DNA of 64,000 nucleotides from assembly GCF_015243575.1 (NCBI RefSeq), contig NZ_CP042469.1; one strand, given 5' to 3'. Positions 54,001-57,000 of the stretch are shown here, piece after piece. Made by a program: the position numbers. The stretch comes from Anoxybacterium hadale (GTDB taxonomy: Bacteria; Bacillota; Clostridia; Peptostreptococcales; Anaerovoracaceae). How positions within the stretch are numbered: position 1 is the first letter of the stretch; each line of letters starts with the position of its first letter.

Positions 54001-57000
54001 ATCAGTGCCAGCACAATGAACAGTCGCTGTCGCTGTCCTCCGGAAAGTTCACTGACGCAGCTTTTTTTCTTATCAGACAGTCCAAATTGCATGAGCAGTT
54101 TTTCATAATTGGCTGGTTGACGGTATAATGCAGCTGTCACTTCGCACAGTTCTCTCACCGTAATCTTTTCCTGATAAGCAGATTCCTGAAATTGAACGCC
54201 GACCCTTTCAAAGAGCTTTCTTCGTTCTTTCACCGGATTCATACCGAGAACCTCAACCATTCCTGCCTCAAATGCCTTTGTTCCCAGCACACATTCAATG
54301 GCTGTTGTTTTTCCCGCGCCATTTGCTCCGAGGAGACCGAAAATTTGTCCCCTATAAGCTGTGAGGCTGAGTTCATTTACAACGTTTACCCCGTTGTAAG
54401 ACTTCTTCAGACCTTTCGCTTGAATCGTTATACATTCTTCTTTCATATGTCATTCCTCCTTTTCAAAAAGAATAACACCAGTGCGAAGTCTGGTGTTTAA
54501 ATGGAGGGTTATATTATTTTAGCAGCCGCTTCATGCGCTCCAGTTGACGAAGCATTTCTAATCCATTGGCTTCTGCCCGACCCAAAGAGGTGAGCAGTTC
54601 ATCACAAACAGAGACAATCTCTTCATCCCTTCTCGGTGTATTGATTTCCTTATAAACATCCGCCTTGGGATTTGCGGAAAGTGCGGTTAGCATTCTCAGG
54701 ATCGATGCCAAGGAATAGTTAGCGCAGCGAAGTGCTTTAATAATTTTAAGCCTTCTCACATCTTCACTCCCATAAACCCGATAGCCGTTTCTCTTTCTTT
54801 TCACCGTCAAAAGTCCATTCATTTCCCAGTTTCTCAGAGAATCCATGGAAACTTCCAAACGTTCCGCAGTCTGCTTCCTGTTCCATAACGCGCTTTCTTC
54901 CATCTGGACATCTTCTTTCCCAGGAATAAAGGCCAGATTTTGTGTAACAATGTCAATGGCTTCTTCCGCGTTTTTCCGCTCTTTTCTGACCTGATCCAAA
55001 TATGAGTGCGCAAGGGACTCCGCTTTACTAAGGTCTTTCTGTGCAGCGGCTTTTATTATTTCGATCGCTGATTTTCGAAGTCCATTTTGTAGAACCTCAA
55101 CTTTTAATGCAATTCTGGCAAGCTTAATTTGTTCGAGGTGAAAGTCATTAAAAACTCGGTACCCATTTGCTTTTCTTTCTGCCTCAGGAATCAATTGCAA
55201 AGCCTCATAAAGCCGCACTGTATTGGGATGAATTCCTGTCAGTCTGGCTATTTCAGAAGTTTTGTAGTTGTTCACAATACCGTTCACCTCCCATAAAAAT
55301 GTTTTTTTTATCATATCACAGTTCCAGTTTAGCACCAAGTAAAAGTCTGGTGTTATAATGGAGGGTTTGATTGTATAATCGGTTAACGAAAGTGACTAAC
55401 AGAGTTTATATTTGGAGACATGATTTTTATTTTGCGTTGTTTATGTTATAATGAACGCAATAAAAAGGTAGTAAAACCAAAGGGGTTTTACGGCAAGAGG
55501 CGTTCATTGTATCGGTGTGAAGCAAGCCGGAGCTGCGACTTGCATGGATGATATAATGAACGCAATAAAAAGGTAGTAAAACCAAAGGGGTTTTACAGCA
55601 AGAGGCGTTCATTGTATCGGTGTGAAGCAAGCCGGAGCTGCGACTTGCATGGATGATATAATGAACGCAATAAAAAGGTAGTAAAACCAAAGGGGTTTTA
55701 CGGCAAGAGGCGTTCCAATCAAGTTTACAAAAGAAGCAGGAGGCAAGCATTCATGGAAACAAGACCATATATGTCATGGGACCTAATCGGCGATTTTATT
55801 GCATCAGCCTTTGAAAAGATCGGTGTTCCCCGAGAAGAGGCGGAAATATGTGCTGATGTACTGATGGAAAGCGACAGGCGGGGGATTGAGAGTCATGGCT
55901 GCAATCGTTTTAAACCCATCTATATTGATCGAATCAATGCAGGGATACAAAAACCTGTCACAGCGTTTGAGATCCTCAGGGAAACACCGACCACCGCAGT
56001 TGTAGACGGACATGACGGAATGGGCATGGTAGTTGGCTTTAAAGCCATGAGCATGGCCATTGAAAAGGCTAAGAAGTATGGAATGGGTATGGTAGCTGCT
56101 AGAAATTCCACACACTACGGCATTGCCGGCTATTATCCCTCCATGGCCATCAAGGAAAATATGATCGGAATCACCGGCACCAATGCGCGGCCTTCCATCG
56201 CCCCTACCTTCGGCGTGGAAAACATGCTTGGAACCAATCCCCTTACCTTCGGCTTTCCTACCGATGAAGAATTCCCCTTTATTCTGGACTGTGCTACGAG
56301 CATCACCCAGCGCGGCAAGATTGAGTATTACGCCAGAGAAGGCAAAGAAACACCCGCGGGAATGGTCATCGGTCATGACGGAAACCCCATGACAGACAGT
56401 GTCAAGATACTGGAAGATCTGGTGAAGGAAACTGCTGCTCTGGCTCCTCTTGGCGGAATCGGCGAAGAGCTGGGCGGATACAAAGGCTACGGCTATGCCA
56501 CCGTGGTAGAAATCCTTTCCGCAGCCCTTCAAGCCGGAAGCTTTTTAAAAATGCTTACCGGACTTGATGATCATGGAAACAAAATGCCGTACCATCTCGG
56601 TCATTTCTTTATCGCCATCGATACAGAAGCTTTTCTTGGAGCTGACAGTTTTAAGAAGACCACCGGAGATATTTTAAGAGCACTCCGTTCCTCAACCCTC
56701 GCTCCCGGAGAAAGCAAGATCTATACAGCAGGTGAAAAGGAACACCTGATCTGGCTGGAGCGCAAAGATAAAGGAGTTCCTATCGGAGAAGCAGTTCAAA
56801 AGGAATTCATTGAGGTGAGAAACAGTTTGGGTCTGCATCACCGCTTCCCATTTGAATAAAAGCCTAAAAAAAACAAGCTGCCTCTTTACCGTTTTCGGTG
56901 GAGGCAGCTATATTTTTAATCTTGAATCAAGATAACACCCTGATTGCTCTGTCCGTCTATTTTAATGATTAATGGTTTTTTGAAACGAACCAGCGTGACG

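Follow-up and report, generated by a model that had tools for sequence, protein, structure and literature searches.

A gene encoding an Ldh_2 family oxidoreductase of Anoxybacterium hadale is preceded by a tandem array of a 105-bp element, each copy of which is headed by a TGnTATAAT box. The array lies in a 64,000-nucleotide stretch of contig NZ_CP042469.1 (assembly GCF_015243575.1; this whole stretch is hereafter called the window) and had been noticed in a preliminary description made from the sequence alone. Tandem Repeats Finder reported a single array at 55443-55715, with a period of 105, 2.6 copies, 98% matches and a score of 532, in agreement with the period and copy number given earlier. 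The three TATAAT hexamers (55447-55452, 55552-55557 and 55657-55662), each with TGn before it, begin at the positions first reported and are spaced 105 bp apart. As also stated there, units 1 and 2 differ by a single base (G55492 versus A55597); the partial unit 3 is identical to unit 1. After unit 3, a unique leader carries the ribosome-binding site (RBS) AGGAGG at 55738-55743 and ends at the ATG at 55753. A 107-aa open reading frame (ORF), which the preliminary description had dismissed as spurious, does exist on the minus strand at 55427-55750 and was without a credible family match.

Each unit folds into an outer helix, P0, that encloses the hairpin P1, and a second hairpin, P2, which follows a near-invariant core (Table 1). 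The fold energy of the unit was -34.9 kcal/mol (z = -4.2 versus dinucleotide shuffles), and unit 1 scored 104.9 bits with the covariance model. The 5' strand of P0 consists of the hexamer plus the discriminator GAACGC, and its 3' strand, in unit 1, of GCGTTC plus ATTGTA. The first 9 bases of the core ATTGTATCGGTGTGAAGCAA mirror TGATATAAT, with two G opposite T. All three helices were found as previously described, except that P2 of the Ldh_2 copies forms 7 of 8 pairs and has one C.A mismatch; P2 of the copy upstream of lepA is perfect. The blocks that had been called single-stranded and nearly invariant are indeed nearly invariant, but they partly mirror the TGnTATAAT box.

The homologue that had been noted in the lepA leader, in the same sense as that gene, was recovered as a full unit. 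Its box #1 (37462-37454) lies 18 nt past the stop of the upstream ORF, its core is at 37403-37384, its box #2 reads TAGAAT (37358-37353), and the lepA ATG is at 37296; the fold energy was -33.6 kcal/mol (z = -3.6). From this TAGAAT onward (followed by AAACGC, and so on), a decayed partial second unit, missed in the preliminary description, reaches down to the RBS.

Table 1. Coordinates of the element copies and associated features in the window
Feature	Position	Strand	Basis or remark
Box #1, extended -10 TGTTATAAT	55444-55452 (hexamer 55447-55452)	+	Heads unit 1; site of tatggTATAAT in the array-less relative
Unit 1 helix P0 enclosing P1	55447-55511	+	Fold, model match, family covariation
P0 strands, TATAATGAACGC with GCGTTCATTGTA	55447-55458 with 55500-55511	+	Sequence
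P1, GTAAAACC with GGTTTTAC	55471-55478 with 55484-55491	+	Sequence, covariation
Near-invariant core ATTGTATCGGTGTGAAGCAA	55506-55525	+	Exact 18-mer scan, second anchor
P2 of unit 1, GCAAGCCG-gagctg-CGACTTGC	55522-55529 with 55536-55543	+	Sequence, covariation
Box #2, TGATATAAT, shared with unit 2 as its box #1	55549-55557	+	Sequence
Unit 2, full copy, one base off unit 1 (A55597)	55552-55656	+	Repeat finder, nhmmer comparison
Unit 3, partial (box, discriminator, P1, GCGTTC; stops right before ATTGTA)	55657-55715	+	
Ldh_2 family oxidoreductase gene, 368 aa	55753-56859	+	Pfam PF02615, E = 5e-122
Two more -10-like boxes, TGTTATAAT and TATAAT	55351-55359 and 55374-55379	+	In the spacer that separates the array from the MerR-like gene
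Full unit in the lepA leader	37348-37468	-	Same sense as lepA; nhmmer E = 1e-10; covariance model 102.4 bits
Half element, TGTGATATAAT plus AAATGCG, P1, CGCATT plus ATTACA	33462-33531	-	25 bits, E = 0.009

A family of units with covarying helices

An exact scan for the 18-mer TGTATCGGTGTGAAGCAA in a collection with one genome per species recovered 109 stretches, compared with ~17 expected by chance (a figure from our own arithmetic and not a tool output). The 105-bp unit is therefore present in relatives. The stretches came from ~40 genomes labelled Sedimentibacter, Tissierellia, Anaerovoracaceae/Anaerovorax, and unclassified Clostridia/Bacillota, with about 3-10 exact-core copies per genome; a cultured species, Sedimentibacter hydroxybenzoicus DSM 7310, is among the carriers. 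When metagenomes were scanned with a different anchor (GAAGCAA...TTGCACTTATGATA), 67 further stretches were obtained, mostly from fermentation, digester and sludge samples. Covariance-model matches above 50 bits numbered 98 plus 73. The family comprises at least about 170 loci in ~40 species-level Clostridia genomes and in metagenomes and, as far as sampled, is restricted to a Clostridia clade of Sedimentibacter/Tissierellia, Anaerovoracaceae and related uncultured lineages. No copies were found in the viral contigs, plasmids and phages that were searched.

In alignment A1 (below), the order of parts toward the gene is as follows: T-R-T-G-n-TATAAT (box #1), a 6-nt discriminator, A, an A-rich stretch, hairpin P1 (such as ACAAAGAC-N4-GTCTTTGT), the discriminator's complement, ATTGTATCG, GTGTGAA, P2, ACTTA, and TGATATAAT (box #2). 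P2 takes the form of GCAA plus 3-5 variable pairs, a loop, and TTGC; its base, GCAA/TTGC, is invariant and its upper part covaries. Covariation was assessed in alignment A1 (92 sequences, from which covariance model R1 was taken) and in A3, an independently anchored alignment. In A1 and A3, 92.3% and 95.3% of the cells, respectively, were paired, and these values fell to 35-47% and 37-43% when the partners were slid by 1-3 columns. Cells changed on both sides numbered 237 in A1 and 174 in A3, compared with shuffled means of 64 and 54, respectively; in neither alignment did any of 500 shuffles reach the observed count. P0, P1 and P2 are thus all strongly supported by covariation, which bears out the selected secondary structure that had been proposed from two loci.

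The core remained conserved when it did not serve as the search anchor, with ATTGTATCGGTGT exact in 33 of 59 loci and ATTGAATCGGTGT, the core of one sub-family, in 10; the remaining loci had single substitutions or were chance matches. Natural deletion variants were also encountered. In L116 the P0/P1 hairpin is precisely gone, so that TATAAT is joined directly to ATCGG, and in L095 and L177 P1 is gone and P0 is kept as a tight 12-bp palindrome with a 3-nt loop. L023/L126, L128 and L158 are further deletion variants, and others have shortened hairpins.

An Rfam 15 scan of the window returned a single family at its gathering score, a T-box leader at 62752-63017 on the plus strand (107.6 bits; gathering score 93), and none at either element locus. 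At E values up to 10, both loci gave only chance snoRNA and miRNA matches, and scans of 15 related loci gave no match, consistent with the earlier impression that the unit falls outside known RNA families. The core sequence was not found in the literature searched, and searches combining the host taxa with RNA-motif terms returned nothing relevant. By eye, the core was also compared with the K-turn, CsrA, LexA, Rex, Fur/PerR, cre, boxA and 16S 3'-end motifs, none of which fits; the match of CGGUGUG to 16S CACACCG, 7 nt long, does not exceed chance.

Promoter boxes, downstream genes and a probable portable cassette

The DNA upstream of box #1 is otherwise unconserved, yet T, T and G occurred there in 61, 60 and 42% of the sequences exactly 17 bp before the hexamer, where the background of G is ~14%. 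An A-rich block lies further upstream, with C at -1 and A at +1. Positions of TRTGnTATAAT were conserved at 84-100% each (T-R-T-G-n at 84-87%), and the third hexamer position was T in 98% of box #1 copies. By these sequence signals, namely a -35 element and a -10 box with its TRTG extension, box #1 qualifies as a sigma-A promoter. A -35 element is missing from box #2, in which the third hexamer position was T in 80 copies, A in 15, G in 10 and C in 3, with 3 further copies reading TATATT, a variation that looks like that of genuine -10 boxes. In single-unit loci, the start codon lay a median of 38 nt (mostly 24-47) past box #2, which is ordinary promoter-to-gene spacing.

The genes downstream are diverse. 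In 101 of 107 loci, an ORF starts on the same strand within 400 nt, and the 101 downstream proteins fell into 82 clusters. They include LepA (in three lineages), TypA, GluRS, YhaM, ThyA, UvrD, FtsK, RmuC, response regulators, an ECF sigma factor, ferredoxin, phosphate butyryltransferase (Ptb), xanthine-dehydrogenase-type enzymes, transporters, a CofE-like ligase, CorC, MatE, LysO and SPFH proteins. Their Pfam and NCBIfam families are unrelated and share no common pathway. Because the family stands before unrelated genes, a gene-specific or metabolite-specific riboswitch or leader is unlikely. The suggestion of a small promoter-bearing repeat holds, but its scope was too narrow for a family of this size spread over unrelated genes.

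The history of the Ldh_2 array was examined by comparing window positions 55300-55760 with the closest relative found (L178-L182). The relative encodes an Ldh_2 protein 96% identical to that of the window in the same gene order (ABC transporter, MerR-like regulator, Ldh_2, PPDK_N/response-regulator protein) and lacks the whole array; at the site of box #1 it has a plain tatggTATAAT, followed by a short leader that re-aligns just before the RBS. The element is also absent from more distant Ldh_2 orthologues. Therefore, the 2.6-unit array is a recent, lineage-specific gain directly after an existing -10 box. Elsewhere, copy number varies between orthologous loci: the locus of the CofE-like gene has 1 unit, 1 plus a partial unit, or 2 units, depending on the genome. 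Two or more units occur at no fewer than 7 loci of the genome scan and at further metagenome loci; by a stricter pattern, two or more full units were found in 8 of 120 loci. The recent duplication proposed in the preliminary description is upheld by these comparisons. Some placements, such as that at lepA, are old. The lepA leader element is present in A. hadale, in a near relative (L101) and in an Anaerovorax genome (L077); the P0 strands are GAACGC/GCGTTY in A. hadale and L101 and AAATAC/GTATTT in L077.

We consider it probable that the array consists of copies of a portable promoter-plus-leader cassette that drives or boosts whatever gene lies downstream. Each unit would supply a strong sigma-A promoter at box #1 (TTG at -35, a 17-bp spacer, TRTGnTATAAT, and A at +1), a transcribed leader of ~95 nt comprising P1, the near-invariant core and P2, and a second extended -10, box #2, placed like a proximal promoter before the RBS. 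Over time, genes would gain and lose the cassette. Each unit is bounded by the same ~10-15-bp direct repeat (TGATATAAT plus a similar discriminator). Arrays probably arise by unequal recombination between these bounding repeats, which would stack promoters; recombination of this kind, or slippage between the repeats, would readily make tandem arrays and collapse them again. At Ldh_2, 2.6 units would have been added downstream of a pre-existing -10, creating three stacked promoter boxes and a structured leader, and a higher copy number may give a higher output. The leader RNA may act in cis; for instance, a common cellular factor may bind it as a module for stability, processing or insulation. 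The cassette looks like a new portable promoter/leader element that belongs to no catalogued RNA family.

Several points weigh against this account. A plain promoter needs neither an 18-20-nt core identical across orders nor three covarying helices, and so an extra function is implied. That core and tail are near-invariant implies some common partner or mechanism; together with the helices, and standing before unrelated genes, the cross-order core points to a shared partner (RNA polymerase, the ribosome, a ribonuclease or a global RNA-binding protein) or else to a new mechanism at the promoter level. Moreover, P0 pairs promoter positions -12 to -1 (possibly -15 to +1) with +36 to +50. An RNA begun at box #1 lacks the 5' strand of P0, because this strand is the -10 hexamer plus the discriminator, and the role of P0 is not explained by the cassette. 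With respect to box #2, the Shine-Dalgarno sequence of L113 directly adjoins it, so that box #2 is not a working promoter there, and three loci (L014/L031, L041, L084) have no box #2; at such loci the gene must be able to rely on a transcript from box #1. Neither a target-site duplication nor a transposase was seen. Finally, we infer the firing of either box, and the existence of the RNA, from sequence.

Given the gain at Ldh_2, the element might be a non-autonomous mobile element, either a miniature inverted-repeat transposable element (MITE) or a palindrome derived from IS200/IS605, that targets -10 boxes and whose hairpins serve spread through single-stranded DNA. Promoter activity and RNA covariation would then be by-products, with the symmetry arising from template-switch (quasipalindrome) repair. 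The lineage-specific gain falls exactly after an existing TATAAT, and since a TATAAT direct repeat bounds the units, insertion beside a copy would give arrays. The position before unrelated genes, the truncated and internally deleted copies (with the P0/P1 hairpin precisely lost in L116) and the retention of P0 regardless of transcription context all fit such an element, as does the definition of "putative mobile promoters" (PMC3488235). However, copies were few in each genome (about 3-10 with the exact core), almost no extra copies occurred in the 8-kb flanks (720 kb), and the orientation was essentially always toward the gene, at a set distance. A MITE would be expected in many copies, in either orientation and at non-promoter sites, and none of these was found. 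Across families, orthologous genes carry the element in the same position (lepA in three lineages, CofE-like, SPFH operons). The core does not differ between orders, a degree of conservation well above that of a decaying repeat, and copies are absent from the plasmids, phages and viral contigs. At Ldh_2, the inserted block starts with GAACGC and ends with GCGTTC after the existing TATAAT, and the flanks are too diverged to define a duplication; no transposase or clear target duplication was seen. A candidate transposase beside the truncated copy L097 was discarded because its translation, read by eye, looked like that of an aminotransferase-like ORF. Taken together, we regard a mobile element as unlikely.

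A second alternative is a cis-regulatory RNA, that is, a riboswitch or protein-binding leader that senses one global signal for a broad regulon, with the core and tail as the binding pocket between the stems. Its appearance is that of an aptamer or protein site, with three covarying helices beside near-invariant unpaired nucleotides; it holds a fixed position in 5' leaders, is conserved across orders and can be tandem, as some riboswitches are. The conserved, covarying structured domain of a riboswitch is indeed present. However, association with a single pathway is lacking, as is an expression platform: no sense-strand terminator was found in the array or after the motif, and no conserved segment complementary to GGAGG of the RBS was found. 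In addition, a transcript begun at the unit's own promoter cannot form the outer helix, and the element is gained or lost between near-identical genomes with the gene unchanged. These features make a cis-regulatory RNA of this kind improbable.

It is highly improbable that each unit is the gene of a small trans-acting RNA that would extend from box #1 as far as P2 and have the conserved single-stranded core as its seed. Such a gene would have its own promoter, as each unit appears to, and the layout, with a hairpin on either side of a conserved unpaired stretch, would suit it, as would several copies per genome that are sometimes tandem. However, there is no U tract after P2, no sense-strand terminator was called in the array, and the copies adjoin gene starts in the sense orientation, unlike free-standing small RNA genes. 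Thus, neither an own terminator nor independence from the neighbouring gene was found. A leader peptide was considered as well, since many copies contain an 11-17-codon ORF (ATG-TAT-TTA-TTG-TAT-CGG-TGT-GAA...). This candidate was rejected because the Ldh_2 copies have no ATG; in addition, the AATTAC sub-family reads ATG/TTG-TAA and no RBS stands in front.

Further features were observed around the array. In all three units, the antisense strand of P1 together with the following TACCTTTTTA is terminator-like (minus strand, 55471-55491, 55576-55596 and 55681-55701; 3 found versus 0.4 expected), and the antisense tail of other sub-families is only borderline T-rich. The sole public contig encoding exactly this Ldh_2 protein, L001 (Logan contig ERR13731206_357224), begins 67 nt before the gene, inside unit 3, probably at an assembly break in the repeat. 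The divergent neighbour at 54514-55338 (minus strand) has two MerR-type helix-turn-helix regions in one protein (residues 27-63 and 155-219), and, as we read the sequence, translation probably starts near 55270 and not at the TTG at 55338. Of the two additional -10-like boxes in the spacer next to this gene, the one at 55351-55359 reads TTTTAAT in the array-less relative (alignment with L178/L179). From their placement, the boxes at 55351-55379 could feed transcripts through box #1.

Helix P0

The preliminary description had each box heading a unit that folds. The units do fold, but the statement is untenable if taken literally for one transcript: the 5' strand of P0 is the -10 and discriminator of a promoter with its own -35, and hence P0 cannot form in RNA begun there. 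For the same reason, covariation is no proof of RNA structure by itself.

One solution would be RNA that enters the unit from upstream. P0 may be a helix in such RNAs in arrays, in layouts of a full plus a half unit, and in operons such as that of lepA. As a general cause, however, read-through from the upstream gene is insufficient. Upstream genes were co-directional in 51 loci and divergent in 45 of the 96, and the pairing of the discriminator with the 3' arm was perfect in 41 of the 45 divergent loci, as good as in the co-directional ones. A second upstream promoter feeding P0 into RNA was not general either, since the best sense-promoter scores upstream of box #1 barely exceeded those of shuffles and equalled those of the antisense strand. 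We also considered P0 as a relic of arrays, in which the 3' arm would pair with the discriminator of the next unit. This was rejected for single units because complementarity of the box #2 discriminator was at background (28 of 111, versus 30 of 111 in shuffles); P0 is thus a property of the promoter at the head of the unit alone.

These results raise the possibility that the promoter regulates itself through self-complementarity. P0 may form a DNA hairpin or cruciform that masks the promoter, or the nascent leader may pair with its own promoter on the non-template strand; in either case the -10 would be covered. In the former, extrusion would be driven by negative supercoiling with the P1 palindrome as the nucleation centre; in both, masking would follow firing or a rise in supercoiling. 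Compensatory changes would keep the -10 and discriminator matched to +36 to +50 of the promoter's own transcribed region. Consistent with this, P0 is equally good at divergent and co-directional loci, upstream sense promoters are not in excess, and the discriminator of box #2 is no more complementary than background. In addition, the third hexamer T is nearly fixed in box #1 and free in box #2, and the P1-less variants L095 and L177 retain P0. An E. coli promoter described by Horwitz and Loeb in 1988 is also said to be controlled by cruciform extrusion. However, the large asymmetric internal loops between P0 and P1 disfavour extrusion, and the lower stem of one sub-family contains an A.A mismatch. 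In the 3' arm of P0, TGATATAAT is mirrored as ATTGTATCG, with two fixed departures that both put G opposite T. These would be wobbles in RNA and mismatches in DNA; RNA pairing thus remains possible, and an antisense TGnTATAAT is destroyed. Outside the fixed pairs, G:U and A:C counts are about equal and do not discriminate the strand. We know of no bacterial precedent for a nascent RNA that pairs with its own promoter. On balance, self-regulation of the promoter seems decidedly unlikely. Alternatively, template-switch repair may maintain the symmetry of P0, or the element may spread through a single-stranded step that does so.

Half of an element was found on the minus strand at 33462-33531. 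It has no core, P2 or box #2 (fold z = -5.5) and is followed by an RBS, the ATG (33435) of an unannotated gene for a 219-aa protein, and an SPFH gene in the same operon. A consensus TTGACA-N16/17-TATAAT stands ~65 nt upstream (about 33583-33611) and would transcribe through the half element; at the orthologous locus L038 the element is full. As a general promoter style, half elements (promoter plus P0/P1, no core) were rejected, since core-less hairpins that mirror a preceding TATAAT exactly numbered 112, versus 119 in a reversed-sequence control, and so were not enriched. A promoter-mirroring hairpin of unrelated sequence was noticed at ~23018-23023 (minus strand) and the next 50 nt, where TATAAT and the discriminator TTTGCG are followed by a GC-rich hairpin (GTGCGGTCCTTCGGGAACGTAC) and then by the exact complement of the discriminator. 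Other short tandem arrays in the window lie at 5333-5426 and 29644-29709, with 13-nt units repeated 7.2 times and 12/24-nt units repeated 2-3.6 times.

If the boxes fire, the portable cassette would be a clear natural case of a ready-made promoter-plus-leader module that genes gain, lose and amplify. The case bears on how bacterial expression is rewired, since the change is seen between genomes whose Ldh_2 proteins are 96% identical. If the self-complementary promoter were true, it would amount to a built-in, factor-free feedback on initiation, sensing for example supercoiling or firing rate, and this device would ride on a portable cassette used by dozens of unrelated genes. The cultured host S. 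hydroxybenzoicus DSM 7310 makes the question testable.

Comparison with known systems

Short dispersed intergenic repeats that form hairpins and can supply promoters include the Correia repeat-enclosed elements of Neisseria and the BOX elements of Streptococcus pneumoniae. They are modular, with boxB tandemly repeated, alter the expression of neighbouring genes, and occur in about a hundred or more copies in both orientations; Correia elements have terminal inverted repeats and a target duplication. Compared by description, our element is likewise a modular, hairpin-forming, promoter-bearing intergenic repeat. However, it has few copies per genome and one orientation, no duplication was seen, and its inverted repeat is the promoter itself.

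With tandem riboswitches and the 5' leaders in Rfam, the element shares covarying stems, conserved junction nucleotides, placement in 5' leaders and occasional tandem arrangement. It differs in having no Rfam 15 match, no common gene function and no expression platform, and in an outer helix that overlaps an active-looking promoter. The -10 region of the Horwitz and Loeb promoter also lies within an inverted repeat whose extrusion as a hairpin could mask the promoter; that promoter was reportedly selected in the laboratory and has a short perfect palindrome, whereas the repeat of the element is natural, imperfect and ~65 bp long, with an inner hairpin and loops. The icd-II motif, a candidate RNA, is comparable in another way. 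The left shoulder of its P1 resembles a -10 box, and its authors were unsure what is transcribed; it is tied to one gene, icd, whose RBS it occludes (Brewer et al. 2021, PMC8632094). In our element it is the 5' strand of P0 that is -10-like, but this -10 is accompanied by a -35 signal of its own, and there is no relationship among the associated genes.

Putative mobile promoters have been defined as homologous promoter-containing intergenic sequences that stand before non-homologous genes, within and between genomes; sequence similarity was the only criterion, and the majority of families consist of two members (Matus-Garcia et al. 2012, PMC3488235). This operational definition, of homologous upstream sequence joined to non-homologous coding sequences, fits the element family exactly. 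Most of the hosts of the element are metagenome-assembled genomes sequenced after that study. By the description of putative mobile promoters, the family is set apart by its covarying three-helix structure, a core identical across orders, the two-box layout and recurrent arrays. The cassette thus differs from putative mobile promoters, Correia elements and BOX elements in its low copy number, strict orientation toward the gene, conservation at orthologous sites across families, cross-order core, and a covarying helix that includes the promoter.

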